Virus record (IMG/VR): IMGVR_UViG_3300009419_001390
Reading direction: 5' to 3' (one strand)
DNA: 64,000 nt
DNA from: a virus
Taxonomy: Duplodnaviria; Heunggongvirae; Uroviricota; Caudoviricetes
Shown here piece by piece: positions 12,312 to 31,598 of this stretch. The position numbers were made by a program, and so were the translations under genes. The notes beneath the pieces were generated by a model, which ran no database searches, had not been told where the DNA came from, and saw only the letters and a list, made by a program, of their open reading frames with translations. The first letter of the stretch is position 1. Every line of letters begins with the position of its first letter.

Positions 12312-12604
12312 TCGAAGTATTAAGTGGAACTGCCAATTGGATCAAAGAAGATTACAAAAGCGATCGAGTTCGTTTTTGTTTTGAGGTCCTTGCTTGGGCT
12401 ATATCTATTGGCTGTTCTCTCACTATGGCCCTCACCGTGCCTAATCCACCCCTTCTTTACATGTACCCAGTCTGGATTGCAGGTTGTGCTATATACGCTG
12501 GGTGTGCTTACAGTCGTGGTTCCTTCGGCATGCTGGCTAATTACATTCTTCTTACAACCATCGACACAGTAGGTTTAATTAGAATGATTATGCAATTACA
12601 ATAA
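12308..12604 (+). CDS. small membrane protein
   Basis: TTG start, three hydrophobic helices. Confidence 0.65.
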   Translation: MIEVLSGTANWIKEDYKSDRVRFCFEVLAWAISIGCSLTMALTVPNPPLLYMYPVWIAGCAIYAGCAYSRGSFGMLANYILLTTIDTVGLIRMIMQLQ

Positions 12605-12672
12605 ATATTTTTGTCACGCTGGACACTAAACAGCAAGTAGAGTGTGTGTGAGCTAGAAGTCGCACAAAGGAG
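12601..12672 (+). promoter_or_regulatory. late promoter core plus structured 5' leader of the DNA polymerase gene
   Basis: ATAAATA 12601-12607; GCTG/CAGC stem; ACACT/AGTGT possible pseudoknot; TGTGTGA/TCGCACA hairpin abutting SD AGGAG 12668-12672. Confidence 0.5.
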
Positions 12673-12676
12673 AACT

Positions 12677-15337
12677 ATGAGCTACGTCGACGCATTGTTT
12701 GAACGAGATAAAGATCGTATACACGTGGTAGAACGTGTAGACGGCAAAAGAGAGTACAGAGAGTTTCCAGCAGACTACATCTTTTATTATGATGATCCGC
12801 GAGGCAAACACCGAACCATATACGGCACACCAGTAAGCCGTTTCAACACCCGCAATTCAAAAGAATACCACAAAGAACTAAAAGTCAACTCTGGCAAGCG
12901 CCTGTGGGAAAGTGACATCAATCCTGTTTTTCGTTGTTTGGAAACAAACTATCTAGGTGCCACATCACCCAAACTGCAAACAGCATTCTTTGACATTGAA
13001 GTAGACTTTGATCCACTACGTGGATTCTCAAAACCTGAAGATCCTTTCAACGCTATTACCGCAATCTCTGTGTACTTGGATTGGATGGACAAGATGGTCA
13101 CCTTGGTTGTCCCGCCCAAGAGCATGAGTTGGGAAACTGCACAAGAGATATGTGATCAATTTGATAACTGTTATCTATTTGAGCGTGAAGAAGAACTGTT
13201 AAACACATTTCTAGACTTGATTGAAGATGCTGATATCCTAAGCGGATGGAACAGTGAAGGCTTCGACATCCCTTATACTGTGATGCGTATCACACGTGTG
13301 TTGAGCAAAGACGACACACGCCGTTTCTGCTTGTGGGGACAACTGCCCAAGCAACGTATGTTTGAGCGATTTGGTGCTGAAACACTGACGTTTGACTTGA
13401 TTGGTCGTGTGCATATGGACTATATGCAACTGTATCGCAAGTACACATATGAAGAACGTCACAGCTACAGCCTGGATGCTATTGCAGAATACGAACTGGA
13501 TGAACGTAAGACACAATACGAAGGCACCCTGGATCAATTGTACAACAAAGACTTTCGCGAGTTTATTGTGTACAACCGGCAAGATACCATGCTACTCAAC
13601 AAGCTGGACAAGAAACTTAAATTCTTGGATCTAGCAAACGTACTAGCACATGAAAACACTGTACTGCTACAAACCACAATGGGTGCTGTGGCAGTTACTG
13701 AGCAAGCTATTATCAACGAAGCACATCAACTGGGACTAATTGTTCCCAACAGAAAAGGTAGAGATGATCATGGTGACACACAAGCGGCAGGTGCCTATGT
13801 TGCTTTCCCCAAAGCAGGCATGCACGACTGGGTTGGAGCAATCGACATCAACAGCTTGTATCCTTCTGCGATCCGTGCCTGCAACATGGGCCCAGAAACA
13901 ATCGTTGGACAGATCCGGCCAGTAATGACCGACAAGTATATCAAGGACAAGATGGACTCAGGTAGCAGTTTTGCTGATGCTTGGGAAAACATGTTTGGCA
14001 CTCTTGAATATACTGCTGTGATGGAAAATCGTCCTGGCACCGAACTTACCATTGATTGGGAGTCGGGCGAATCAACTGTACACTCAGCCGCGGAAGTCTG
14101 GCGACTGATCTTTGACAGTCACAAGCCCTGGATCCTTACTGCCAACGGCACTATCATGACATATGAAAAGAAAGGTGTTATCCCTGGCTTGCTGGAACGT
14201 TGGTATCGTGAACGTCAAGAAATGCAGGCCAAGAAGAAGGATGCAGAAACAGATGAAGACAAAGCCTTTTGGGACAAACGACAGCTGGTCAAGAAAATTA
14301 ACTTGAACAGTTTGTACGGTGCTATTCTCAATCCAGGTTGTAGGTTCTTTGACAAGCGTATTGGTCAGTCAACTACACTTACAGGACGAATCATTGCCAG
14401 ACACATGGATGCATACATCAATGAGTGCATCTTTGGAGAATACGATCATGTGGGTAAGGCAATCATCTACGGAGACACTGACTCTGCTTACTTCAGTGCG
14501 TGGCCTGCTGTGAAGGAAGATGTTGAAGCTGGCAGGATGGAGTGGAACAAAAACATCTGTGTGCAACTGTACGACAGCATTGCAGATCAAGTGAACGCCA
14601 GTTTTCCAGCATTCATGGAACGGGCCTGCCACTGTCCACGCAACATGGGCGAACTGATCAAAGGCGGTCGTGAGCTGGTGGCTGAGAAAAGTTTGTTTAT
14701 CAAGAAGAAACGTTATGCACTGTTGATCTATGACCTAGAAGGCAAGCGACAAGACACACACGGCAAACCAGGCAAAGTTAAAGCCATGGGGCTAGACTTG
14801 AAGCGCAGTGATACACCCAAGGTTGTACAAGACTTCTTGAGCGAACTGTTGCTGGATGTGCTAACAGGCGGACAGAAGGAAGGTATCTATGACAAGGTGC
14901 GTGACTTCAAGATTGCATTTCAAGAACGTCCTGCTTGGGAAAAAGGCACACCCAAACGTGTGAACAACTTGACCAAATACACTGCTGAAGAGTCTAGACT
15001 GGGCAAAGCCAACATGCCAGGACATGTACGTGCGGCTATGAACTGGAACAATCTCAAACGCATGCACGGTGACAACTATAGCACCAGCATTGTAGACGGT
15101 ATGAAAACCATTGTGTGTAAACTGAAAGAAAATTCATTGAACTATACTTCAGTTGGATATCCAACTGATGAACTGCACGTTCCGCAATGGTTCAAGGAAC
15201 TACCGTTTGACGATGCACTGATGGAGACAACCATTGTGGATCAAAAGGTAGAAAACTTGTTGGGTGTTCTAAAGTGGAACATTGCAGAAAACACTGACAT
15301 TGCCACCACGTTTGATAGTTTGTTTACATTTGACTGA
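12677..15337 (+). CDS. family B DNA polymerase (gp43-like)
   Basis: Exo motifs FFDIEV, GWNSEGFDIPY, YNRQD; Pol motifs DINSLYPS, KKINLNSLYG, YGDTDS, KKRYAL. Confidence 0.97.
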   Translation: MSYVDALFERDKDRIHVVERVDGKREYREFPADYIFYYDDPRGKHRTIYGTPVSRFNTRNSKEYHKELKVNSGKRLWESDINPVFRCLETNYLGATSPKLQTAFFDIEVDFDPLRGFSKPEDPFNAITAISVYLDWMDKMVTLVVPPKSMSWETAQEICDQFDNCYLFEREEELLNTFLDLIEDADILSGWNSEGFDIPYTVMRITRVLSKDDTRRFCLWGQLPKQRMFERFGAETLTFDLIGRVHMDYMQLYRKYTYEERHSYSLDAIAEYELDERKTQYEGTLDQLYNKDFREFIVYNRQDTMLLNKLDKKLKFLDLANVLAHENTVLLQTTMGAVAVTEQAIINEAHQLGLIVPNRKGRDDHGDTQAAGAYVAFPKAGMHDWVGAIDINSLYPSAIRACNMGPETIVGQIRPVMTDKYIKDKMDSGSSFADAWENMFGTLEYTAVMENRPGTELTIDWESGESTVHSAAEVWRLIFDSHKPWILTANGTIMTYEKKGVIPGLLERWYRERQEMQAKKKDAETDEDKAFWDKRQLVKKINLNSLYGAILNPGCRFFDKRIGQSTTLTGRIIARHMDAYINECIFGEYDHVGKAIIYGDTDSAYFSAWPAVKEDVEAGRMEWNKNICVQLYDSIADQVNASFPAFMERACHCPRNMGELIKGGRELVAEKSLFIKKKRYALLIYDLEGKRQDTHGKPGKVKAMGLDLKRSDTPKVVQDFLSELLLDVLTGGQKEGIYDKVRDFKIAFQERPAWEKGTPKRVNNLTKYTAEESRLGKANMPGHVRAAMNWNNLKRMHGDNYSTSIVDGMKTIVCKLKENSLNYTSVGYPTDELHVPQWFKELPFDDALMETTIVDQKVENLLGVLKWNIAENTDIATTFDSLFTFD

Positions 15338-17104: not shown

Positions 17105-17454
17105 TCAAAGGTCTAATGGGCAGTCGCGGAGTAGTAGTGGATGGTGGTAACACCAGTGTTCCGTATGTTAACTCAAATGCCAGCAATCCCATACAGGGTA
17201 TGCTCCGTGTCAACGGAACAGACATGCAGGTGTTTGATGGTACAACATGGATCAACATGAGCACCAGTTATGCCACTGTTAGCCTGGATCCTATTACCCA
17301 AGAAGCCATTGATTGGGCACGGCGTAAGATGCAAGAAGAAAAAGACTTGCATGATCGCATGAAGCGGCACCCAGGACTAAAGAGTGCTTGGGAGCAGTTT
17401 CAGATCATGGATGCACTAACACTAGAAGAAAAGAAGCATGGACAAGAAGCCTGA
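17101..17454 (+). CDS. hypothetical protein
   Basis: 117-aa ORF coupled to both neighbours. Confidence 0.7.
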   Translation: MIKGLMGSRGVVVDGGNTSVPYVNSNASNPIQGMLRVNGTDMQVFDGTTWINMSTSYATVSLDPITQEAIDWARRKMQEEKDLHDRMKRHPGLKSAWEQFQIMDALTLEEKKHGQEA

Positions 17455-18808
17455 ACAAGATGATCTAACTAGCAAACAGCTAGACTATGCTGTGTTCTTG
17501 CCAGCTATCAGTGGCTTCTATGCTACCTTCATAGGCAAACAGCGTGTGAACAATGACTACATAGATCCTGCACGTATGCCAGCTGGAATGCCCGACATGG
17601 AACAGATGAACTGGCTTAACAGTCAGAAGGCATTGTTCCCATACAAGTGGAGCCTGTACTCGGGTGGTCATGCCAATCTAGATCTCAACAAAGATGATCC
17701 TAGTGAAGACATGGTTCGCAAGCGTGAGCCAGGTACGTTCATGCTAGGTGACTCTGGTGGATTCCAGATTGCCAAGGGCCTGTGGGAAGGCGACTGGAAG
17801 GCCAATTCAGGTTGTGCCAAAGCTGAAAAGAAACGCAGTTCTGTTCTAAAGTGGTTGGACGAGATTGCCGACTATGGAATGATCTTGGATATTCCAACTT
17901 GGGTTATTCACGACAGGAAAGCTAGCAAGGCTTGTCAGATTACCACACTGGATGAAGCAGTGGCCGCTACCAAATTCAATAACGAATACTTTATGAAACA
18001 TCGTAAAGGAAAAAAGAACGGCGGTGCAAAATTCTTAAATGTTCTACAAGGCGATAATCATACTTCAGCTGAAGAATGGTATCAGACCATGAAGGAATAT
18101 TGTGATCCTGTGAAATATCCTGACACTCACTTTGACGGTTGGTCAATGGGTGGTCAAAACATGTGTGACGTAGATCTAGTGCTACGCAGACTGGTAGCAT
18201 TACGCTACGATAACTTGTTACAAGAGGGAGTTCATGACTGGATGCACTTCTTGGGCACAAGTAAACTAGAGTGGGCAGTCTTGCTCACTGACATTCAACG
18301 TGCAGTTCGCAAATACGTTAACCCTGCATTTACTATCAGCTTTGACTGTGCTAGTCCTTTTCTAGCCACTGCTAATGGACAAATGTATCATCATATTGAT
18401 TTGCCACACAATGATAAATGGTGTTATCGAATGAGTCCAAGTGCAGACGACAAAAAATATGCCGTTGATACACGAATGTTCCGCGATGTAGTACTACAGG
18501 ATGGAATCTTTCCGCATTTTGACGAGAGCCCAATAAGCCAGCATTTACAGATCAAAGATGTATGTATATACAAGCCGGGCGATTTGAACAAGATCGGCAA
18601 AGAGGGCAAGACCAGCTGGGACAGCTTCAGCTATGCACTCATGATGGGACACAACGTGTGGACACACATCGAAGCAGTACAACGTGCCAATCGTGAATAC
18701 GATGCAGGCCGATGGCCTAACATGATGTGGAACGAAGGTACTAAAAAGCGCACAGGTGATCATGCCAAGTTCCGTGACATTGGACGCTATTTTTGCCGCG
18801 CCAACTAA
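17438..18808 (+). CDS. dpdA: TGT-fold 7-deazaguanine DNA transglycosylase (DpdA-like); appears frameshifted near 18782
   Basis: MLGDSGGFQI, MILDIP, FLNVLQG, GWSMGG, HFLG, SFDCASP motifs of the TGT family; located in the Que gene cluster. Confidence 0.8.
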   Translation: MDKKPEQDDLTSKQLDYAVFLPAISGFYATFIGKQRVNNDYIDPARMPAGMPDMEQMNWLNSQKALFPYKWSLYSGGHANLDLNKDDPSEDMVRKREPGTFMLGDSGGFQIAKGLWEGDWKANSGCAKAEKKRSSVLKWLDEIADYGMILDIPTWVIHDRKASKACQITTLDEAVAATKFNNEYFMKHRKGKKNGGAKFLNVLQGDNHTSAEEWYQTMKEYCDPVKYPDTHFDGWSMGGQNMCDVDLVLRRLVALRYDNLLQEGVHDWMHFLGTSKLEWAVLLTDIQRAVRKYVNPAFTISFDCASPFLATANGQMYHHIDLPHNDKWCYRMSPSADDKKYAVDTRMFRDVVLQDGIFPHFDESPISQHLQIKDVCIYKPGDLNKIGKEGKTSWDSFSYALMMGHNVWTHIEAVQRANREYDAGRWPNMMWNEGTKKRTGDHAKFRDIGRYFCRAN

Positions 18809-22214: not shown

Positions 22215-22910
22215 ATGTTTGGAGCAAATTATACAGACGGTGGCATAATGAACTATCGTTCTGCAAGCGAAATCAACTCAGCAATGGGTCGTGTATACGG
22301 ACACATGAGTCTGGCTGTGCTTGTGTCAATGTTTGTGAGTTATTTTGTAGGCACCAGTCCAGAGTTGCTACAATTCTTTTTTACAGGTGTGCTAAAGTGG
22401 ATTGTGATCTTTGCACCGCTGGCGGCAATCTTTGGCGTGAGCTATGTTCTGGGTAACAACCCCAGTAAAGGTGTGGCACAACTATGCTTGCATGGCTTTG
22501 CGGCACTTATGGGATTGAGCTTTAGCATGATCTTTGCTGTGTTCAACATGGGGTCAATTGTTAGTGCGTTCATGGGTGCGGCAATCTTGTTTGGGGTGAT
22601 GAGTGGCTATGGCTACTTTACTAAAAAGGATCTAAGCTCAATGGGCCAGATGATGTTTGTGGGCTTGATTGCTATTGTGATTGCCAGCATTGTAAACATC
22701 TTTATTGGTAGTACCGTAATGCAGATGGTTATCAGTGCATTGGCCATTATCATCTTCCTGGGACTAACAGCATACGACACACAACGTATTCGTGAAGAAG
22801 TCAGTGTTGACACCAGTCCAGCCGTGGAAGTAACAGGCGCATTGTCTTTGTACATGAACTTTATCAATTTGTTCCTAAACTTGTTACAGTTGTTTGGCGA
22901 AAGAAAATAA
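22215..22910 (+). CDS. Bax inhibitor-1/YccA family membrane protein
   Basis: Seven hydrophobic helices; YGYFTKKDLS, TAYDTQRI, ALSLYMNFINLF. Confidence 0.92.
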   Translation: MFGANYTDGGIMNYRSASEINSAMGRVYGHMSLAVLVSMFVSYFVGTSPELLQFFFTGVLKWIVIFAPLAAIFGVSYVLGNNPSKGVAQLCLHGFAALMGLSFSMIFAVFNMGSIVSAFMGAAILFGVMSGYGYFTKKDLSSMGQMMFVGLIAIVIASIVNIFIGSTVMQMVISALAIIIFLGLTAYDTQRIREEVSVDTSPAVEVTGALSLYMNFINLFLNLLQLFGERK

Positions 22911-23887: not shown

Positions 23888-24858
23888 TGACAAAAATATT
23901 TGTAACAGGTGCAACAGGCTACATTGGTAGCCATGTGTGCAAACAACTCAAGCAGGACGGCTATGAAGTAGTTGGCCTTGACCGTGTGCATCGTGAACAT
24001 ACTATAAAGCACATGGATCGCTTTATTGAAGCTGACTATCATAGTCCTGTGTGTTTTGATGCACTGGCCTACGAACAACCAGATGCTATCATTCATCTAG
24101 CAGGTACCAGCCTTGTTGGTCCTAGCATGAGTGATCCTGCTGAATACTATACCAACAACGTGGCCAAGACTGCGGCATTGTTGGATGTGGCACGTTGGTT
24201 GGAAAAGATGCCAGTGATTGTGTTTTCTAGTTCAGCCGCTGTGTATGGCAATCCGGATGCCAAGGTCATATACGAGCACACACCATACAGTCCACTGAGC
24301 CCGTATGGTACTAGCAAGGCCATGATTGAAATCATGCTTACTGATTACAATCGTGCATATGGAATGAAAAGTGCAAGTCTACGCTATTTCAATGCCTGCG
24401 GCGCAGATCTTGACAGTGAACTAGGCCAAGAACCTGGTGCCACACACATTATTGCACGACTATTGGAAAGTGTACGTGATAACACAGAATTCACACTGTA
24501 CGGTGATGGCACTCATGTGCGTGACTACGTACACGTGACTGACCTAGCCGCCGCACATGTTATGGCTGTGCAGTATCTCATGAGCGACATGCAGGAATGT
24601 ATGGCATTGAATCTTGGCACAGGTACTGGTGCCAGCAATCAAGAGATCATTGATTTGGTTGCGCAGTTGGTTGGTACCGTGCAACTGACCAAGGCGCCAG
24701 CAAGACCAGGTGATCCAGCACAACTGGTAGCAGGCAATCTAATGGCAAAGACCACGCTGGGCTGGAGTCCTGCACATTCAGACCTCAAGACCATTATTGA
24801 ATCAGCTTGGAAGTGGTATAATAACCTACCACATGTCATTGACAAATCATCTAAATAA
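23887..24858 (+). CDS. galE: UDP-glucose 4-epimerase (extended SDR)
   Basis: GATGYIGSH, HLAG.SLVG.S..DP..YY.NN, SSSAAVYG, YGTSK, LRYFNACGA, RDYVHVTDLA.AH. Confidence 0.9.
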   Translation: MTKIFVTGATGYIGSHVCKQLKQDGYEVVGLDRVHREHTIKHMDRFIEADYHSPVCFDALAYEQPDAIIHLAGTSLVGPSMSDPAEYYTNNVAKTAALLDVARWLEKMPVIVFSSSAAVYGNPDAKVIYEHTPYSPLSPYGTSKAMIEIMLTDYNRAYGMKSASLRYFNACGADLDSELGQEPGATHIIARLLESVRDNTEFTLYGDGTHVRDYVHVTDLAAAHVMAVQYLMSDMQECMALNLGTGTGASNQEIIDLVAQLVGTVQLTKAPARPGDPAQLVAGNLMAKTTLGWSPAHSDLKTIIESAWKWYNNLPHVIDKSSK

Positions 24859-24867
24859 TCTTACAAT
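24839..24867 (+). promoter_or_regulatory. sigma70-type promoter with nested late core
   Basis: TTGACA-17-TACAAT; spacer contains CTAAATA. Confidence 0.7.
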
Positions 24868-24907
24868 ACAAACAAAGTCATCCACGACTATTAACTCGGA
24901 GAACAAA

Positions 24908-25678
24908 TTGACATACAACAAAGTATACATTAGCAACGATCCAGACGAAACAGCACTGGATGCCATGGCAGGCGATGGCGGCTACGAACTAGGTACAGCA
25001 CACAAACAGATCGCATTCAAAATGAACAGAGACAAAAAACGTTTCTGGGCAGGCGACAACATCAGTGACTATGTTGATGACAAAGCCAAAGAGCAATTGA
25101 TTGACGAAGCCACAGCGGCATTTGAACTTGTGTTAGACACGCTACTAATTGATCGACAAACCGATCCCAACAGCCAAGGCACAGCCCGACGCCTGGCCAA
25201 GATGTACTTCAATGAAATAATGGCAGGTAGATATGACACAGCACCAGACGCAACAGCATTTCCTAATGATTCAACAGACCGTTACGAAGGCATGTTGGTT
25301 GTACGCAGTGAATTGCGCAGTATGTGTAGTCATCATCATCAACCAGTTACTGGGGTCGCCTATATTGGAATCATCGCTGCCGAAAAGCTCATTGGTTTAT
25401 CTAAGTATACTCGCATTGCTCAGTGGTGTGCTAGGCGTGGTACTTTACAAGAAGAACTGGCCAATGACATCGCACGAGAAATACAAAAAGCCACAGGAGC
25501 CACAGACCTAGGTGTGTATATTCAAGCCACGCACGGATGCTGTGAGAATCGCGGCATCATGGCACACTCTAGTTTAACACAGACTACTGTGCTTAAAGGT
25601 GCATTCAAGGACGATGGTAATACAAAGAAGGAATTCTTTGACAACATTAAACTACAACAGGAGTTTGCACCAAGATGA
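24908..25678 (+). CDS. folE: GTP cyclohydrolase I
   Basis: SMCSHHHQP, GLSKY.RI, LQEEL, HGCCENRG; TTG start after GGAG. Confidence 0.95.
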   Translation: MTYNKVYISNDPDETALDAMAGDGGYELGTAHKQIAFKMNRDKKRFWAGDNISDYVDDKAKEQLIDEATAAFELVLDTLLIDRQTDPNSQGTARRLAKMYFNEIMAGRYDTAPDATAFPNDSTDRYEGMLVVRSELRSMCSHHHQPVTGVAYIGIIAAEKLIGLSKYTRIAQWCARRGTLQEELANDIAREIQKATGATDLGVYIQATHGCCENRGIMAHSSLTQTTVLKGAFKDDGNTKKEFFDNIKLQQEFAPR

Positions 25679-25906: not shown

Positions 25907-26440
25907 ATGAGCCATAGAGAAAAAGATTCGGCAGACTTTGATCTAGAAGCATTCATTGACTTGTTTGATGAAGCACTTACTAGTGATGATCCTAGTGTGC
26001 AAAAGACACTACAGCATCTAATGGTTATTTGTGCGTTGGCTCGTAACCATGCACAACACGATCGACGTAATGGCCCAATGCGCCGTATGTTTGAAGACCA
26101 ACATACAATACTTCGGAGGTTGGAAAGACTTGAGTCGGACCAACAGAACAAGAGGGTCTACCCTGGCGGAGGACTTGGAGGTGGCGGCATGCCGTTTGGC
26201 CCTTATGTACACCCCACCATTGTGCCTAACACAGGTGGAGGCACTGGTTGGCCGCCACAACCTGGAACTTATCCTCCGGGAACCATCTGGGCACAAGGCG
26301 GAACCTCAGACGTAGGATTTGGTGCAGTTCCTCCTGTTACATCAACGGCAACATCAACGGTTGCAGAACGTGTGGAAGATCTGTTAAAATCCAGCTACAA
26401 AGGTTCGTCTGTAGGAACAAAAAATGTTAAAATTACTTGA
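25907..26440 (+). CDS. hypothetical protein with Pro/Gly-rich tail
   Basis: 177-aa ORF. Confidence 0.65.
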   Translation: MSHREKDSADFDLEAFIDLFDEALTSDDPSVQKTLQHLMVICALARNHAQHDRRNGPMRRMFEDQHTILRRLERLESDQQNKRVYPGGGLGGGGMPFGPYVHPTIVPNTGGGTGWPPQPGTYPPGTIWAQGGTSDVGFGAVPPVTSTATSTVAERVEDLLKSSYKGSSVGTKNVKIT

Positions 26441-26894
26441 ACGTCTAGGGCGTAAACGTATCATATATGATCGTATCAACAACGAGCCATACTTGGAACG
26501 CTATTACCTGTTTCTCAAAGAGCGTGAACGTTTTCCGTTCAATGTATTTTTACACAAGTTCTTAAAAGGCGACCCAGATGATGTTCATGATCATCCTTGG
26601 CCGTATGCAACACTGATCTTGAAAGGTGGTTATTATGAATGGATTCCGGAGTTTAACTCAACTGGTATTAAAATTGGAGAAGCTCGTCACTGGCGTGGGC
26701 CCGGACACTTTCGCACTTGCAGTGCTAGCAGTTATCATCGCATCGAACTGGATCCTGGCGTAACTGCCTGGACATTGTTTATGCCTGGACCGCATACTCG
26801 TGAATGGGGATTCTTAACAGGCAAAGATCCAAAAACAAATTGGGAACACAATGAAGATTATCTCACCCGGCGTAGTAGCACTTCGTCCGTTTAA
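26424..26894 (+). CDS. cupin-fold protein
   Basis: LHKF...D.DDVHDHPW, GGYYE, YHRIEL, WTLF..GP..REWGF. Confidence 0.75.
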   Translation: MLKLLERLGRKRIIYDRINNEPYLERYYLFLKERERFPFNVFLHKFLKGDPDDVHDHPWPYATLILKGGYYEWIPEFNSTGIKIGEARHWRGPGHFRTCSASSYHRIELDPGVTAWTLFMPGPHTREWGFLTGKDPKTNWEHNEDYLTRRSSTSSV

Positions 26895-27186
26895 GATTCA
26901 TACCAATGCTCTTTCTCAAGAGATGGTAGACTTCTGGGTCATGATGGGTGCTGAAGCACAGGAAATTAGCGATGAATTCCACACGCACAGAGGCCGGCAT
27001 AGAACTGACAAGCACTATCGCATACGCATGGGCAAGGGTGACTGGAGCCACCAATTCAACGATGGTAGTGGCACCTACATCATTCACTTGCGCGAAGAAT
27101 TTGCACCAGAAGCCAGCCTTTTTATTATGAAGTATATAGACAACATTATCAACCACGACTGTAAGGTACCGGAGCCTCAACTATGA
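26851..27186 (+). CDS. hypothetical protein (start uncertain)
   Basis: Fills the gap on the coding strand; stop overlaps the next ATG. Confidence 0.5.
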   Translation: MKIISPGVVALRPFKIHTNALSQEMVDFWVMMGAEAQEISDEFHTHRGRHRTDKHYRIRMGKGDWSHQFNDGSGTYIIHLREEFAPEASLFIMKYIDNIINHDCKVPEPQL

Positions 27187-27743
27187 AACTGATTCACAAC
27201 AACAAACATCTAAACACCTGGGTGCATAAGATCATTCGAGACATGGCGCAGGATAACTGGCGCCCAGACTACATTGCAGGTATCACACGTGGCGGACTTG
27301 TGCCTGCCACTATGCTGAGTCATTATCTTGATGTGCCCATGCATACCTTGAACATCAGCTTTCGCGACAACGACCTTGGTCCTGAAAGCAATTTGTGGAT
27401 GGCCGAAGATGCGTTTGGTTATGTGCCATATGAAGGTACTGAGTTGCCAGCGCCTGCAGATCGAGTCACAACCGATCCTGCCCTGCGCAAGAAGATTCTT
27501 GTTGTTGACGATATCAATGACTCGGGTCGCACATTGAACTACATCAAACAAGACTGGCCAAGTGGTTGCTTGCCCAAAGATCCAGCCTGGGCAGATATCT
27601 GGCATGATAGTGTGCGCTTTGCTGTGATGGTAGACAATCTATCCAGCGGTTTCCAAGATGTGGACTACTGCGGCACAGAAATTAACAAACAGGAAACACC
27701 ATGTTGGATTGTGTTTCCTTGGGAAAATTGGTGGGAGAACTAA
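27183..27743 (+). CDS. type I phosphoribosyltransferase (Gpt/Hpt-like)
   Basis: GITRGGLVPA, PRPP loop ILVVDDINDSGRT, WIVFPWE. Confidence 0.9.
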   Translation: MKLIHNNKHLNTWVHKIIRDMAQDNWRPDYIAGITRGGLVPATMLSHYLDVPMHTLNISFRDNDLGPESNLWMAEDAFGYVPYEGTELPAPADRVTTDPALRKKILVVDDINDSGRTLNYIKQDWPSGCLPKDPAWADIWHDSVRFAVMVDNLSSGFQDVDYCGTEINKQETPCWIVFPWENWWEN

Positions 27744-27746
27744 AAG

Positions 27747-28235
27747 ATGTTAAACAGTAAGAAAGTTGGCTTCACAGCCTCAACATTTGATTTGCTACAT
27801 GCAGGGCACATTGCCATGCTCAAAGAAGCAAAAGAGCACTGCGAATATTTGATTGCAGGGTTACAAAACGATCCCACATTGGATCGTTCAACAAAAAACA
27901 AACCTATTCAAAGTATTGTAGAACGACAACTACAACTAGAAGGTTGCAAGTTTGTGGATGAAGTTTGGGTCTACAACACAGAAAAAGATCTTGAAGACTT
28001 GTTGCTCACATTACCAATTGATGTACGTATCTTGGGTGTGGAATACGAAGGCAAAGAGTTTACAGGTCGTGAAATTTGTCACAAGCGAGGCATTGAATTG
28101 TATTTCAATGGTCGTGATCACAGTTTCAGTTCTAGCGAACTTCGTCAACGTGTGCATGCCGCAGAAAAGTTCAAAAAGGAACTAGGGCCTGACCCAGTGG
28201 GCGCAGATGATACAGGTGGCCCTAGCCCACGATAA
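27747..28235 (+). CDS. TagD-like cytidylyltransferase
   Basis: TFDLLHAGH (HIGH-type), ERQLQLEGCKFVDEV, RDHSFSSSELR. Confidence 0.88.
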   Translation: MLNSKKVGFTASTFDLLHAGHIAMLKEAKEHCEYLIAGLQNDPTLDRSTKNKPIQSIVERQLQLEGCKFVDEVWVYNTEKDLEDLLLTLPIDVRILGVEYEGKEFTGREICHKRGIELYFNGRDHSFSSSELRQRVHAAEKFKKELGPDPVGADDTGGPSPR

Positions 28236-28238
28236 ATA
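28232..28238 (+). promoter_or_regulatory. late promoter core (ATAAATA)
   Basis: Overlaps the upstream stop and directly precedes the structured queD leader. Confidence 0.55.
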
Positions 28239-28244
28239 CTTGTT

Positions 28245-28316
28245 CCAAGCGGCCTTGGCTTCACCCCGCTATATCAAACTCTGCCAGCCTATGCTACACA
28301 ACATAGGAGAAACAGC
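28245..28316 (+). ncRNA. candidate preQ1-I-like riboswitch (cis-regulatory leader of queD)
   Basis: P1 AGCGG/CCGCT, loop TTGGC complementary to GCCAG, A-rich linker, CCTATG/CATAGG stem occluding SD AGGAG, competing CCAAG/CTTGG hairpin. Confidence 0.55.
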
Positions 28317-28823
28317 ATGTCAGCACTACAACCAGTGGTATACAAATACCAAAGCACCAAAGAGTATCATGACGCATTCCCATGCGCTTATCGTCAATGG
28401 AGGAGTGACAGTCATTGTAATCTAATACATGGCTACTCATTCTCAATGAAGTTCTATTTTGGAACCAATGACCTAGACGTTCGTAACTGGGCCGCAGACT
28501 ATGGCGGACTCAAAGAACTCAAGAAGATCCTGGAAGATCAATTTGATCACACCTTGATCGTAGCACAAGATGATCCAGAAATGGCCACATTCAAACTGCT
28601 ACAAGAAAAGAACATGGCCAAGATTGTGGTGTTACCACGACTAGGATGTGAAGGACTAAGTGACATGCTGTACAAGTATGTGAATGGTGTTTACATTCCG
28701 GACATGTGGGGTCCAAGCGAAGCCGCCCGTTTGTGGTGCTATCGTGTGGAAGTGCGTGAAACCCAAAGCAATATGGCTTTCCGCGAAGGTCATCGCGAAT
28801 GGAATGAAAACTTGCTTGACTAA
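28317..28823 (+). CDS. queD: 6-carboxy-5,6,7,8-tetrahydropterin synthase (QueD), copy 1
   Basis: SHCNLIHGY, DYGGLK, FDHTLIV, LGCEG, RETQSN. Confidence 0.9.
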   Translation: MSALQPVVYKYQSTKEYHDAFPCAYRQWRSDSHCNLIHGYSFSMKFYFGTNDLDVRNWAADYGGLKELKKILEDQFDHTLIVAQDDPEMATFKLLQEKNMAKIVVLPRLGCEGLSDMLYKYVNGVYIPDMWGPSEAARLWCYRVEVRETQSNMAFREGHREWNENLLD

Positions 28824-28844
28824 TACCTAGTTTAATGTTATACT
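28816..28844 (+). promoter_or_regulatory. sigma70-type promoter
   Basis: TTGACT-17-TATACT with TG extension. Confidence 0.7.
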
Positions 28845-28875
28845 ACATTACTTTCAACTACTCTTGGAGTTTTCA

Positions 28876-29421
28876 ATGTCACGTAGATTTAGCACAAAAA
28901 CTTATGGCAACGATCGAGGCCTAAGCTGTACCTTCCGTCAACATGCCGCAACGCATAGTCATTGCAGTCTGTTACATGGATACAGTTTAGGTTTCAAATT
29001 TGTATTCGAAGCAGAACAACTTGATGAACGTAATTGGGTACAAGACTTTGGCGGCCTAGACGAAGTCAAAGAGTTCCTTGAAAAAACATTTGACCATACC
29101 ATGATTGTTGCAGAAGATGACCCACTGCTCAAGCATTTTCAGAAGATGGCTGGGTGGAGTGCAATCAAAGACATGCACGGAAAAGCAGATGAAGTACAGG
29201 TACATCCTGTAGGCAACAAAGGTGTGGCAAAATTGGTAATGATGCCTGCTGTGGGTTGTGAAGCATTTGCTGAGTATGTGTATGCCTGGACTGCTGACTG
29301 GTTGCGCAATGATCCCACAAACAAGTATCAAAATTTACTGGGTGACGAGCATCCACGTGTTAAATTAATCTCTGTTGAAGTATTTGAACACGCAGGCAAT
29401 TCTGCAATCTACGAAGGGTAA
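28876..29421 (+). CDS. queD: QueD, copy 2
   Basis: SHCSLLHGY, DFGGL, FDHTMIV, VGCEA, FEHAGNSA. Confidence 0.9.
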   Translation: MSRRFSTKTYGNDRGLSCTFRQHAATHSHCSLLHGYSLGFKFVFEAEQLDERNWVQDFGGLDEVKEFLEKTFDHTMIVAEDDPLLKHFQKMAGWSAIKDMHGKADEVQVHPVGNKGVAKLVMMPAVGCEAFAEYVYAWTADWLRNDPTNKYQNLLGDEHPRVKLISVEVFEHAGNSAIYEG

Positions 29422-29422
29422 T

Positions 29423-29845
29423 ATGAGACAAGAAATCTTTGAAGATCTTCCAGAAACGATTGAAGAAAGTGAAGCACCTTGGACTGACAGCGTAAGGCAG
29501 GATTTCCATGTGGCAGTGTATCGCGACAGATATCCTGTCACAGACGGCCATCTGTTGTTTGTACCCAAGTACAATGCTGTGGGTGTGCTCAAGGATGCAT
29601 TTGAAGATGCATTCAATTACGGAAAAGAAAAGGTTGATGATGGCGAATGGGACGGTTTCAACATTGGACTTAATTACGGCCAGGCTGCTGGACAAACTGT
29701 GTCTTGGCCTCATATACATCTTATTCCCCGTAAAACGGGCGACGTCGCGGATCCTGTGGGCGGTGTACGACACACGATTCCGGGCAAGGGTAATTATAGA
29801 ACGGCGCCAGAGGGAACGTGGCCACATTTAGATGAGGGAAGATGA
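29423..29845 (+). CDS. HIT family hydrolase
   Basis: YPVTDGHLLFVPK, GFNIGLN.G.AAGQTV, HIHLIPR. Confidence 0.92.
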   Translation: MRQEIFEDLPETIEESEAPWTDSVRQDFHVAVYRDRYPVTDGHLLFVPKYNAVGVLKDAFEDAFNYGKEKVDDGEWDGFNIGLNYGQAAGQTVSWPHIHLIPRKTGDVADPVGGVRHTIPGKGNYRTAPEGTWPHLDEGR

Positions 29846-30708
29846 TAATAGTAACCGGTGACCGTGGCTTTATAGGAAGCGAATTAAAACAACATCTTGT
29901 GGAGCACGGCCACAAGGTACACAGTCTAGATTGGGCTGATAGAGGTCGGACCTGGACTGCTGAAGAACCCATTGAATGGATTTTTCACATGGGTGCCATC
30001 AGCGAAACCAATGTAACTGACTGGTCAGCTTTGGTCAAGAAGAATATTGAAGACACCCAAGCCTGGATCCGGTTTGCACAAGAACACAACTGTGGTATTA
30101 CCTACGCATCAAGTGCCAGTGTGTACGGGCCGTGGTCGGGTAGCCCAGAGTGGGGTCCATTCCAGCCACAGCACTACTACGGTGTGAGCAAGATTGCTAT
30201 TGACATGTGGTGTGCAGAACAAAAATTTACTGTGCCTGTACAAGGTGTGCGTTTCTTTAATGTATATGGACGCAACGAAGGTCACAAGAACCAGCCAAGT
30301 CCAGTCCGCAGATATATTGAGAATGCAATAACCACACGTAAACTTACAGTGTGGCACCACAACAATCGTCTGGGCTCACGAGATTTTATCAGCGTGGATG
30401 ACTGCATCAAGGGCATGCTGGCGCTGAAAGATGCAAGAGTGAGTGGCGTTTACAACCTAGGCACAGGCCAACAGCTGACATTTGAAGACATTGCCAAGCT
30501 GATTCAAAAGCATATGGGCATGGACAATGCTCAAGTATGCATTGCTCCCATGCCTGATCATATGATTGAAAAATATCAGTGGGAGAGTCTAGCGGACCTA
30601 AATAAGCTAAAGTCAGTTGTTCCAAATTGGAATCCACAAACGGTGGATGAATGGCTAGACGACAATTTTGAAACACTGTATAATAAAATCAAAGAGGAAA
30701 TACTATGA
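29842..30708 (+). CDS. ADP-L-glycero-D-manno-heptose 6-epimerase-like SDR
   Basis: TGDRGFIG, FHMGAIS.T, YASSASVYG, YGVSK, RFFNVYG..E.HK, RDFISVDD, YQ....ADL. Confidence 0.8.
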   Translation: MIIVTGDRGFIGSELKQHLVEHGHKVHSLDWADRGRTWTAEEPIEWIFHMGAISETNVTDWSALVKKNIEDTQAWIRFAQEHNCGITYASSASVYGPWSGSPEWGPFQPQHYYGVSKIAIDMWCAEQKFTVPVQGVRFFNVYGRNEGHKNQPSPVRRYIENAITTRKLTVWHHNNRLGSRDFISVDDCIKGMLALKDARVSGVYNLGTGQQLTFEDIAKLIQKHMGMDNAQVCIAPMPDHMIEKYQWESLADLNKLKSVVPNWNPQTVDEWLDDNFETLYNKIKEEIL

Positions 30709-31598
30709 AATTGAAAGTAAGCGAAATGTTCTACAGCCTGCAAGGCGAAGGCAGATACATAGGTGTGCCTAGCGTGTTCTTGCGTACATTTGGTTGTAAT
30801 TTTACCTGTGGTGGATTTGGCATGCCCAAGGGTGAAGTTAGTACAGAACGCGATGCCGTTGATGCAAGCAAATATTCTAAATTTGAACAATTACCATTGG
30901 TACATACTGGCTGTGACAGCTATGCCTCATGGGATCCCAAGTTCAAAGATCTTAGTCCCACAAAAGACATTGACACTATTGTAGACGAATTACTGGCTCT
31001 TACCCCTAATGGCAAATGGCAACAATACATTGGCAACCCTGTGCATCTGGTGATCACAGGCGGTGAGCCATTGTTGGGTTGGCAACGTGTGTATTCTGAA
31101 CTGTTAAGTCATCCAAGAATGATAGATCTTGATTATATTACATTTGAAACCAATGGCACTCAGATGTTGGATGAAAAGTTCAAAGACTATATTCAAGAAT
31201 GGCATACCGAATGGCGTGGCACCACCGAAGCCGACCATCAAGAGTACATTGGTCGTTTCCGTGAAATGCAATTTAGCATTAGTCCTAAACTGAGCAAGAG
31301 TGGCGAGAAGTGGGCTGATGCTATCTGTCCTGAAGTAATTGCTGATTATCAACATGTTGGTGTTACATATCTAAAATTTGTTGTTTCAGATTTTGAAGAC
31401 CTGATGGAAGTAAAAAGTGCGGTAGACGAATACCGTGCCGCAGGGTTTATGGGCCATGTGTATGTGATGCCAGTTGGTGGCACAACAGAACTGTATGATG
31501 TTAACAAAAAGCGCATTGCTGACGAAGCATTGAAACTTGGATATTACTACAGCCCGCGACTGCATGTGGACCTTTGGGGAAATGGCTGGGGCAAGTAA
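30705..31598 (+). CDS. queE: 7-carboxy-7-deazaguanine synthase (radical SAM)
   Basis: EMFYSLQGEG..G.PSVFLR..GCN..C, GCDS, ITGGEPL, ETNGT, SISPK, PRLHVDLW. Confidence 0.92.
   Translation: MKLKVSEMFYSLQGEGRYIGVPSVFLRTFGCNFTCGGFGMPKGEVSTERDAVDASKYSKFEQLPLVHTGCDSYASWDPKFKDLSPTKDIDTIVDELLALTPNGKWQQYIGNPVHLVITGGEPLLGWQRVYSELLSHPRMIDLDYITFETNGTQMLDEKFKDYIQEWHTEWRGTTEADHQEYIGRFREMQFSISPKLSKSGEKWADAICPEVIADYQHVGVTYLKFVVSDFEDLMEVKSAVDEYRAAGFMGHVYVMPVGGTTELYDVNKKRIADEALKLGYYYSPRLHVDLWGNGWGK

Follow-up and report, generated by a model that had tools for sequence, protein, structure and literature searches.

The closest described counterparts of the RNA element reported here are the preQ1-I riboswitches (Rfam RF00522), which have a three-loop architecture and, immediately ahead of the 3' strand of P1, an invariant specificity C that follows a U in type I and an A in types II and III (PMC11625349). 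The 3' strand of P2 in preQ1-I carries Shine-Dalgarno (SD) bases or feeds a terminator, giving an OFF switch. To our knowledge all known preQ1 riboswitches are OFF switches, and biosynthetic genes are seldom under ON switches. Translational ON control by strand competition is found in the add adenine riboswitch of Vibrio vulnificus, in which ligand binding frees the ribosome site. T4-like phages regulate genes 32 and 43 via leader pseudoknots and hairpins, and phage-carried RNAs also include the glutamine (glnA) RNA and the manA and wcaG motifs in cyanophages. Phages use the 7-deazaguanine pathway to modify their DNA against host restriction.

We analysed a 64-kb stretch of phage DNA (the window) in which the 81-nt leader of a queD-like gene (28236-28316) holds a 52-nt conserved element (28245-28296). 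This element is the single match in the whole window (54.0 bits, E 7.5e-17) of R1, a covariance model that we built for the phage element. The features of the leader are as follows:

28232-28238, + strand: ATAAATA, late-promoter-like (NATAAATA type), 9 nt 5' of P1 and overlapping the upstream stop
28245-28296, + strand: conserved RNA element, an aptamer-like pseudoknot plus the start of P3 (R1 match)
28248-28252, + strand: P1 5' strand AGCGG, partner 28266-28270
28253-28256, + strand: L1 CCUU, consensus N-C-U-(U) then a variable insert, roughly 3-10 nt in all
28257-28260, + strand: P2 5' strand GGCU, family-wide register from class table and pair count
28261-28265, + strand: L2 UCACC (consensus UCAYC), with C28265 directly 5' of the P1 3' strand
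28266-28270, + strand: P1 3' strand CCGCU, partner 28248-28252
28271-28284, + strand: L3 AUAUCAAACUCUGC (consensus WUAYAAAYUCYGC), with an A-rich start and an invariant GC end
28286-28289, + strand: P2 3' strand AGCC; C28285 is unpaired, C28288 and C28289 are common to P3
28288-28307, + strand: P3 hairpin CCUAUG (28288-28293) / CAUAGG (28302-28307), in MFE and centroid folds
28305-28309, + strand: Shine-Dalgarno sequence AGGAG, read from the sequence
28317-28823, + strand: regulated gene, PTPS/QueD-like, 168 aa, AUG at 28317 (Pfam PF01242, PHROG 2389)

A first-pass annotation of the window had already singled out this leader, and on recheck of the letters all of its coordinates (ATAAATA, P1, UUGGC/GCCAG, CCUAUG/CAUAGG and the SD) were correct. 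It had also taken the gap before queD to be unusually long, whereas the window contains at least 10 longer gaps. ATAAATA overlaps the TAA (28233-28235) that ends the upstream nucleotidyltransferase gene, P3 occupies A28305-G28307 of the SD, and the L3 of the window has a 1-nt insertion relative to most relatives. Single-sequence folding of the window leader alone is not special, its MFE of -14.8 kcal/mol being no better than that of shuffled sequence (z = +0.81).

The element shares with preQ1-I the H-type pseudoknot, a 5-bp P1 with top G-C pairs, an L2 of 4-6 nt ending in an invariant C, usually with a U before it as in type I, a similar A-rich start of L3 (AUAnAAA...CU), a P2 running from loop to 3' tail, and a position 5' of 7-deazaguanine pathway genes. 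It differs in L1, which is NCUU plus a variable insert in phages and UU(C) in preQ1-I, where 8/8 control aptamers have UUC. The phage L3 (13-14 nt) begins with WUAYAAA, much like AUAAAAAA or AUACCAAAA of true aptamers, but then extends into an invariant YUCYGC that preQ1-I lacks. Further, the phage P2 is a Watson-Crick helix of 4-7 bp placed further 3' than in preQ1-I, its 3' strand is an anti-RBS rather than a carrier of SD bases, and the phage element, unlike preQ1-I, has been found only in viral contigs.

At gathering score, Rfam 15 (4227 covariance models) matched no family anywhere in the window. A search at E<=10 of the window leader and that of one related locus (L019) gave no match to a preQ1 family, only chance-level matches on the opposite strand (STnc40 and emrB-Lactobacillus, both 14.3 bits). 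RF00522, which has a threshold of 39 bits, did not match the element in five phage records (best score anywhere, 15.5 bits), whereas as a positive control it scored genuine aptamers from four Bacillota genomes at 42.9-51.9 bits. Likewise, preQ1-II (RF01054) and preQ1-III (RF02680) had no match in the window at gathering score and none in the two leaders at E<=10. The first-pass annotation had called the leader a variant preQ1-I aptamer and named the Rfam preQ1-I/II/III models as a check: its fold and core stand, but since these models do not recognise the element, it is not a preQ1-I family member by this test. In the other direction, in 5/8 genuine preQ1-I loci the P1-L2-L3 portion of R1 fell on the true aptamer and in the right orientation, at no more than 8.2 bits, each match being individually insignificant; 27 weak matches were found with about 0.2 such coincidences expected. 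We read the element as preQ1-I-like in fold and core and not as a member. It looks new, being missing from Rfam 15 and from the literature searched, where no article described a phage riboswitch ahead of PTPS/queD genes.

Conservation and covariation of P1, P2 and the loops

Two counts on related leaders found P1 to be 99-100% paired and to covary at 3-4 of its 5 pairs, with pair types AU/UA, GC/CG/UA and CG/UA/AU among relatives and the top two G-C pairs (almost) invariant. In a set unselected on the 5' strand of P1, 99.3% of cells were paired and 4/5 pairs had changed on both sides, although here, as for P2 below, cell counts overstate independent events as many of the sequences are closely related. 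None of 500 shuffles was as good, and slid registers of P1 gave 39-62% pairing. The loops are similarly constrained: in alignment A1 the second position of L1 is an invariant C, the third a nearly invariant U, and both L2 and L3 are nearly invariant. All 139 distinct sequences listed have the C that immediately precedes the P1 3' strand, and the base before it is mostly U, with some C and few A, the window having CC.

P1, the A-rich L3 and the SD hairpin of the first-pass annotation are conserved and covarying in relatives. The same is not true of a CCAAG/CUUGG hairpin that it set against P1 as a mutually exclusive fold, for which conservation is lacking: the three bases ahead of P1 on which it depends vary freely. 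Nor is the C at the first loop position a meaningful replacement for U, as had been suggested; that position is merely variable (A/C/U), and the invariant ones are the second and third.

The family-wide register of P2, anchored at L2 and the invariant GC, pairs GGCU (28257-28260) with AGCC (28286-28289). A helix from loop to tail had been proposed before and does covary, but its proposed register, UUGGC x GCCAG, is about 2 nt off and applies to the GCCAGCC class only. As a general register we rejected UUGGC x GCCAG, which needs the invariant GC to be paired and whose partners show no covariation in other classes. In the window's own sequence class two P2 registers are possible. The MAFFT and model-based alignments (A1 and A2) misplace the one-base gap of the short P2 classes and so bring the P2 columns out of line; P2 was therefore counted by an anchored script. 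This gave 78% of cells paired; partners shuffled 2000 times gave 50.5 +/- 2.5% and never more than 58%, and slid registers gave 22-45%. The closing pair varied among UA (64), AU (26), GC (11) and CG (10). Cognate strands had a duplex energy of -6.07 kcal/mol versus -4.51 for non-cognate ones, with 0/5000 permutations as low. P2 is imperfect in some classes, such as GCAAGCC, which has an A x A mismatch.

Distribution among phages and neighbouring pathway genes

We fetched 200 IMG/VR loci, 80 by protein similarity and at least 120 by DNA pattern, which hold at least 139 distinct versions of the element. Nearly all of the 200 loci listed have one element per record, 5' of a gene of the PTPS/QueD family. 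Among the protein-similarity matches listed, the element was found in 77/80 loci. The DNA pattern placed it at 120 loci or more, and 117 of 120 had a PTPS homologue within ~800 nt downstream; of the three exceptions without an adjacent PTPS, two have an extra ORF before the PTPS gene and one lies at a contig end. R1 gave one match per locus at 49-72 bits against a background of at most 14 bits, and five phage records of 208-383 kb each have one strong copy. This recurrence among relatives is far beyond chance. Across this collection of queD-homologue leaders, which the first-pass annotation had put forward as a way to check its fold, the element is conserved and both P1 and P2 covary in the aligned relatives. 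The downstream PTPS proteins are 30-95% identical to that of the window and have four N-terminal types, and at one locus (L164) the element scores 67.9 bits even though the protein is just 31% identical to the window's. The RNA is kept across divergent proteins and in hundreds of uncultured freshwater phage contigs.

An exact-pattern scan of bacterial genomes returned 58 matches, about the chance expectation, and 56 of these were without the rest of the element. The two real matches (L230 and L261), both of them contigs of 6-8 kb binned with Bacteroidota MAGs, are probably of phage origin. These data suggest that the element is apparently virus-only, but as an exact-pattern scan sees one sequence variant only, they do not prove its absence from bacteria. 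Among cultured phages, a blastn search with the best-scoring element had no match, nor did R1 match the QueD leaders of Sinorhizobium phage Phosso and Acidovorax phage ACP17. As a putative cis-regulatory RNA on an auxiliary metabolic gene of aquatic phages, the element is reminiscent of the glnA, manA and wcaG RNAs; however, those are common to bacterial hosts and are in Rfam, whereas the queD element has neither an Rfam match nor a convincing bacterial case.

The queD product matches Pfam PF01242 (E 2.3e-14) and PHROG 2389 'QueD-like' (E 6e-35), and NCBIfam QueD below the cut-off only. FolE is encoded at 24797-25678 and a QueE-like gene lies at 30705-31598; by Pfam, NCBIfam and PHROG scans the pathway genes near the leader are FolE, two QueD-like genes and one QueE-like gene. 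QueC had been noted as absent, and a tblastn search of the window with two bacterial QueC proteins indeed gave no match. In five related jumbo records, Pfam searches for QueC and TGT returned only partial PP-loop matches for QueC and no TGT. The window ORF at 17438-18808 has no Pfam or PHROG match, and no RNA-binding domain was found in the neighbouring genes by Pfam, NCBIfam and PHROG scans.

Expression platform and possible modes of control

Each of the three platform types masks the SD or the AUG in a helix to which the 3' strand of P2 also contributes. The P3 hairpin of type A is conserved in 79 leaders, with variants such as CCUAUA/UAUAGG, UCUAUG/CAUAGG and CCUAUG/UAUAGG. In types B and C, 60/60 leaders have 4-5 of the P2 3' bases within the strand that pairs with the start codon, and the helix (UGYCAUC/GAUGRCA) has 7 bp over the AUG and shows C-G to U-A changes. 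When the platform was folded by itself, at least 4/5 P2 3' bases were paired in 106/139 leaders and at least 3 SD bases in 121/139, the SD sitting 16-40 nt 3' of the P2 3' strand in the competing helix. P2 duplexes are mostly -5 to -8 kcal/mol versus -6 to -14 for the sequestering folds shown. In the platform type of the window P2 and P3 overlap by just 2 nt, and by none in the register of the first-pass annotation.

The idea of an H-type pseudoknot through which the queD leader would control ribosome access is supported by its conservation across relatives and by the competing helix in folds, but the feedback repression of queD that was proposed with it is not. Rather, because the P2 3' strand belongs to the helix that hides the SD or AUG, the architecture predicts activation by an ON switch, a prediction that is weakest for the window sequence, since its P2/P3 overlap is small or nil. 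We propose, with a probability of about 0.6, that the queD leader is a phage-specific H-type pseudoknot acting as a translational switch with a metabolite-locked ON logic. P1 (5 bp), P2 (4-7 bp), the 5-nt L2 ending in the invariant C and the A-rich L3 would form a compact aptamer, and the P2 3' strand would alternate between the pseudoknot and the helix that hides the ribosome site, the two folds being mutually exclusive. On energies alone the sequestering fold should win. A guanine-faced small metabolite of the FolE-QueD-QueE pathway, either a 7-deazaguanine (CDG, preQ0, preQ1) or a pterin (H2NTP, CPH4), may then bind and lock the pseudoknot; the SD or AUG would thereby be released and QueD translation switched ON. 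Sequence comparison establishes the element, its two covarying helices, the competing helix, its exclusive occurrence with PTPS genes and its place outside the Rfam preQ1 families; we infer the binding of a metabolite, the identity of the ligand and the direction of regulation. The add adenine riboswitch likewise has an aptamer helix that shares bases with the SD/AUG-hiding helix, but it is built on a three-way junction instead of an H-type pseudoknot and has another ligand and other hosts. More tentatively, and at somewhat worse than even odds, the element may represent the first virus-confined riboswitch class, one that split off from the preQ1-I fold or converged on it, was rewired ON and senses a 7-deazapurine intermediate or GTP-derived pterin, licensing QueD. 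If this is true, a metabolite would directly control a pathway for DNA hypermodification or nucleotide modification in jumbo and other freshwater phages.

It would seem quite unlikely that the element is a true, divergent preQ1-I riboswitch that binds preQ1 or preQ0 and represses QueD translation. The three-loop pseudoknot, the invariant C, the A-rich L3, the queuosine-pathway gene downstream and the weak alignment of R1 onto true aptamers would all fit; however, RF00522 reports nothing at the element even at E<=10 while genuine aptamers reach ~43-52 bits, L1 reads NCUU... and not UUC, L3 has the extra invariant YUCYGC, and with an anti-RBS as its P2 3' strand the pseudoknot should expose the ribosome site. 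Binding of a phage protein (the PTPS itself or a RegA/gp32-like repressor) to the element as a translational operator, with no small molecule, has its precedent in genes 32 and 43 of T4-like phages, and both the confinement to phages and the invariant loops, which could serve as a protein-binding surface, are consistent with it. The T4 gene 32 leader likewise has a pseudoknot that begins the mRNA of a T4-like phage and acts on translation initiation, but there it is a gp32 nucleation site beside an unstructured AU-rich tract, with neither the conserved competing helix nor the likeness to a metabolite aptamer that the phage queD element has. We consider an operator unlikely, as the core resembles a known metabolite aptamer of the same pathway and no RNA-binding domain was detected in neighbouring genes by Pfam, NCBIfam or PHROG scans. 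Further, the four PTPS subfamilies have 30-55% mutual identity and occur in records of very different size and gene context, so a common protein partner is less parsimonious.

Stable triplex pseudoknots exist without ligands, and they offer a precedent for a ligand-independent element, such as a 5'-end stabiliser against RNase, a thermometer or a kinetic device that briefly permits translation of nascent transcripts; that the inferred transcript begins with the element would agree with this. We nonetheless regard such a function as very unlikely, because a general stabiliser is not expected at one gene family and in a single copy per 200-380 kb genome, and because a sensor is what the near-invariant, unpaired L2 and L3 and the conserved competing helix point to.

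If a metabolite does bind, as the ON-switch reading holds, the pseudoknot would be an additional type of riboswitch with no fewer than 139 distinct natural variants, so far from viral contigs only, and would control the pathway that phages use for DNA modification against host restriction. It would also show the minimal preQ1-I fold converted from an OFF to an ON device by a shift of the P2 3' strand from SD to anti-SD, and the identity of the ligand would hint at the products of QueC-less FolE-QueD-QueE clusters in uncultured jumbo phages. Even if the partner is a protein, the element would still be an abundant and well-defined RNA that regulates an auxiliary metabolic gene in cis.

Promoter motifs and transcript start

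ATAAATA is not enriched in the window (6 found versus 8.4 expected); its six copies are all on the + strand, and each lies in a spacer immediately ahead of a gene. The motif TATAAATA is absent from the window. Read-sized contigs from RNA libraries of two metatranscriptome studies cover 28258-28460 and 28261-28411, with their strand and start unreadable and DNA carry-over possible. Among the 138 related leaders with enough upstream sequence for a promoter scan, 108 have TAA[AG]TA within 45 nt, usually ending 5-11 nt before P1 (peak 8), and 46 have a TATAAT-like -10 that most often ends 7 nt before P1. Given that two promoter types hold a fixed spacing to P1, we infer that transcription starts at or just 5' of P1.

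A conserved RNA element in viral queD leaders

Our searches revealed that the leader of the PTPS/QueD-like gene carries a real, abundant RNA switch with a preQ1-I-like core, found only in viral contigs. Its features in the window are the following.

28232-28238 (+), ATAAATA, enclosing the stop codon TAA (28233-28235) of the upstream nucleotidyltransferase-like gene
28236-28316 (+), 81-nt spacer between the two genes
28245-28296 (+), 52-nt conserved element
28248-28252 and 28266-28270 (+), strands AGCGG and CCGCU of helix P1
28317-28823 (+), PTPS/QueD-like gene, start AUG at 28317

A sequence check found P1, the loop/tail complementarity, the CCUAUG/CAUAGG hairpin and the Shine-Dalgarno (SD) sequence all where the first-pass annotation had placed them. 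Viewed without its relatives this single leader is unremarkable, with a minimum free energy of -14.8 kcal/mol that 161 of 200 shuffles equalled or bettered in single-sequence folding, and the gap had wrongly been called unusually long, as at least 10 gaps in the window exceed 81 nt.

An IMG/VR search with the QueD-like protein returned at least 589 loci, of which 80 (88-97% identity) were kept; their gene contexts were highly varied, with the same upstream gene in few, and 77 of the 80 had the leader element. A DNA pattern, TCAYCCCNNNNTANAAAYTCTGC, built from loop L2, the P1 3' strand and loop L3, retrieved at least 120 further viral loci, and in 117 of 120 a PTPS homologue lay within about 800 nt downstream. 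These homologues are 30% to 95% identical to the window protein and of four N-terminal types. Among the three exceptions, one reaches the contig end, and in two an additional ORF, about 250-300 aa long, separates element and PTPS gene (L143:4408-5160 and L181:4910-5800); we guess that the L181 ORF may be a homing-endonuclease-type insertion.

In covariance-model searches, R1, our model of the element, gave a single match per locus at 49-72 bits (54 bits in the window) and one match in each of five phage records of 208-383 kb, where the next-best match was at most 14 bits; background in other sequences was at most 8.2 bits. The contig shared by loci L080 and L087 also bears a second, degenerate copy (L087:5-56 (+), 30.7 bits) about 1 kb upstream of the canonical one and 5' of an ORF with the SAM-methyltransferase-like motif VLDLGSGTG. 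Its P1 is shifted to ACCAG/CUGGU and UUCGCC replaces UCUGC. This copy may be a duplicate in decay, or else a variant that controls a second gene.

Searches of cultured phages gave no instance of the element, and our literature search found no paper describing it. A scan of 596 Gb of bacterial genomes with one exact pattern gave 58 matches, two of them real and both on small MAG contigs that are probably phage. Window DNA was found in freshwater metagenomes from many studies. The window DNA polymerase is nearest those of the jumbo phages Phosso (51%), Atu_ph07 (46%) and Rak2-like phages (42%). Sinorhizobium phage Phosso, the closest cultured relative by this protein, has a QueD leader (L267:3940-3997) without the element; a different inverted repeat there, ACAGGACACGACGUUGUCUGU, was spotted by eye.

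Covariation and the relation to preQ1-I

The first-pass annotation had proposed covariation among homologous leaders as a check, and we observe it in both P1 and the loop-to-tail pseudoknot helix P2. Among 92 distinct sequences whose loci had been retrieved regardless of the P1 5' strand, 99.3% of P1 cells pair, with changes on both sides at four of the five pairs; this was equalled in none of 500 shuffles, and slid registers reached 39-62%. In a set of 139 sequences, where 100% pairing is by construction because the set was selected for perfect P1, pair types include AU 124/UA 15, GC 128/CG 10/UA 1 and CG 126/UA 7/AU 6.

For P2, the base directly 5' of L2 (UCAYC) pairs with the base directly 3' of an invariant YUCYGC. 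Classes include GGCAU x AUGCC, GACAU x AUGUC, GACGC x GUGUC, GGCA x UGCC, GGCG x CGCC, GGUG x CACC, GGGC x GUCC and GACUU x AAGUC. With the register fixed in this way, pairing holds in 78% of cells, compared with 50.5 +/- 2.5% for shuffled partners (maximum 58% in 2000 shuffles) and 22-45% in slid registers, and the closing pair varies among UA (64), AU (26), GC (11) and CG (10). Register-free duplex energies agree (-6.07 kcal/mol for cognate vs -4.51 for non-cognate partners; 0 of 5000 permutations equally low). P2 is imperfect in some classes, with an A x A mismatch in the GCAAGCC class. In the window's class, GCCAGCC, GGCU x AGCC fits with C28285 unpaired; the register first proposed, UUGGC x GCCAG, is possible there but finds support from no other class. 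Hardly any variation is seen in L2, in L3 or at the first positions of L1.

Known preQ1-I aptamers are H-type pseudoknots with SD bases in P2, an A-rich L3, a UU motif that follows the P1 5' strand, and, ahead of the P1 3' strand, a specificity C whose preceding base is U in type I and A in types II and III (PMC11625349). The phage element shares the H-type fold, an invariant C mostly after U and the A-rich start of L3. It lacks the preQ1-I L1 motif and SD placement and has the additional invariant YUCYGC. Rfam's preQ1-I model RF00522, which scored 43-52 bits on genuine aptamers in four Bacillota genomes, found no match at the phage element. In an unfiltered R1 search of eight genuine preQ1-I loci, five of 27 weak matches fell exactly on the aptamer and on the correct strand (about 0.2 expected), aligning model positions 4-36 (P1, loop and start of L3) at 4.6-8.2 bits. 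These scores point to resemblance rather than membership.

Expression platform and transcript

The leaders fall into three types by the platform 3' of the aptamer. Type A (n = 79, window included) has the CCUAUG/CAUAGG helix over three SD bases, and its P2 3' strand ends with the first two C's of CCUAUG. Types B and C (n = 60) have a 7-bp helix between UGYC plus the following three bases and the first two codons of the gene, as in UGCCAUC x GAUGGCA, with changes of C-G to U-A and among C-G, U-G and U-A; this helix takes in four or five P2 3' bases in each of the 60. Platform-only folds pair at least 4 of 5 P2 3' bases in 106 of 139 leaders and at least three SD bases in 121 of 139. Since P2 3' bases are paired in the platform helix, pseudoknot and sequestering helix are mutually exclusive. 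Most P2 duplexes, at -5 to -8 kcal/mol, are weaker than the sequestering folds displayed (-6 to -14), and opening the ribosome site would therefore need a pseudoknot stabilised by something. This layout is that of a predicted ON switch; types B and C show it best, and the window's type A, with an overlap of only two bases, shows it least.

We consider it most likely, at a probability of roughly 60%, that the element senses a metabolite, a guanine-faced 7-deazapurine or a pterin, as an ON riboswitch, with both ligand and direction putative. The main rivals of this reading are a protein-bound operator and a structural device that needs no ligand.

ATAAATA had been read as a late-promoter core. 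It is not enriched in the window (6 copies vs 8.4 expected; TATAAATA has 0 copies there), although all six copies are on the + strand in spacers immediately 5' of genes, a placement that would be as expected for a NATAAATA late-promoter core. In the stretch 12601-12716, about 100 nt of leader separates another ATAAATA from the SD and AUG that open the DNA polymerase gene. Among relatives a late-type TAA[AG]TA ends mostly 5-11 nt before P1, and in others a TATAAT-like -10 ends mostly 7 nt before it; given the fixed spacing of both promoter types, we infer that transcription starts at or just 5' of P1. Read-sized RNA-library contigs from two studies, which cannot reveal an end, span 28258-28460.

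Pathway genes

The window encodes FolE (24797-25678), two QueD-like proteins, a full-length QueE-like protein (PHROG 2076, E 2e-51), a purine-type phosphoribosyltransferase, an RfaE-like nucleotidyltransferase, a HIT protein and a heptose-epimerase-like protein (SDR), which cluster with queD across 24797-25678 and 27183-31598. Our searches of the window found no QueC, as the first-pass annotation had noted, and Pfam TGT had no match in the five related phage records (208-383 kb), of which three have an estimated completeness of 98% or more. The window ORF 17438-18808 had no Pfam (E <= 1) or PHROG (E <= 0.001) match. In toyocamycin/tubercidin-type nucleotide routes CDG is joined to PRPP, and by its composition the QueC-less gene set may recall these routes and DpdA-type base exchange equally well.

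No copy of the element accompanies the second PTPS paralogue (28864-29421), which is directly preceded, at the end of queD, by a sigma-70-like promoter match (28816-28844; TTGACT-17-TATACT with upstream TG, 10 of 12). The window also encodes a Bax-inhibitor-1 family membrane protein (22215-22910; Pfam PF01027, E 1e-54) and, at 26424-26894, a protein whose PHROG match (E 3e-35) carries the annotation cysteine dioxygenase.
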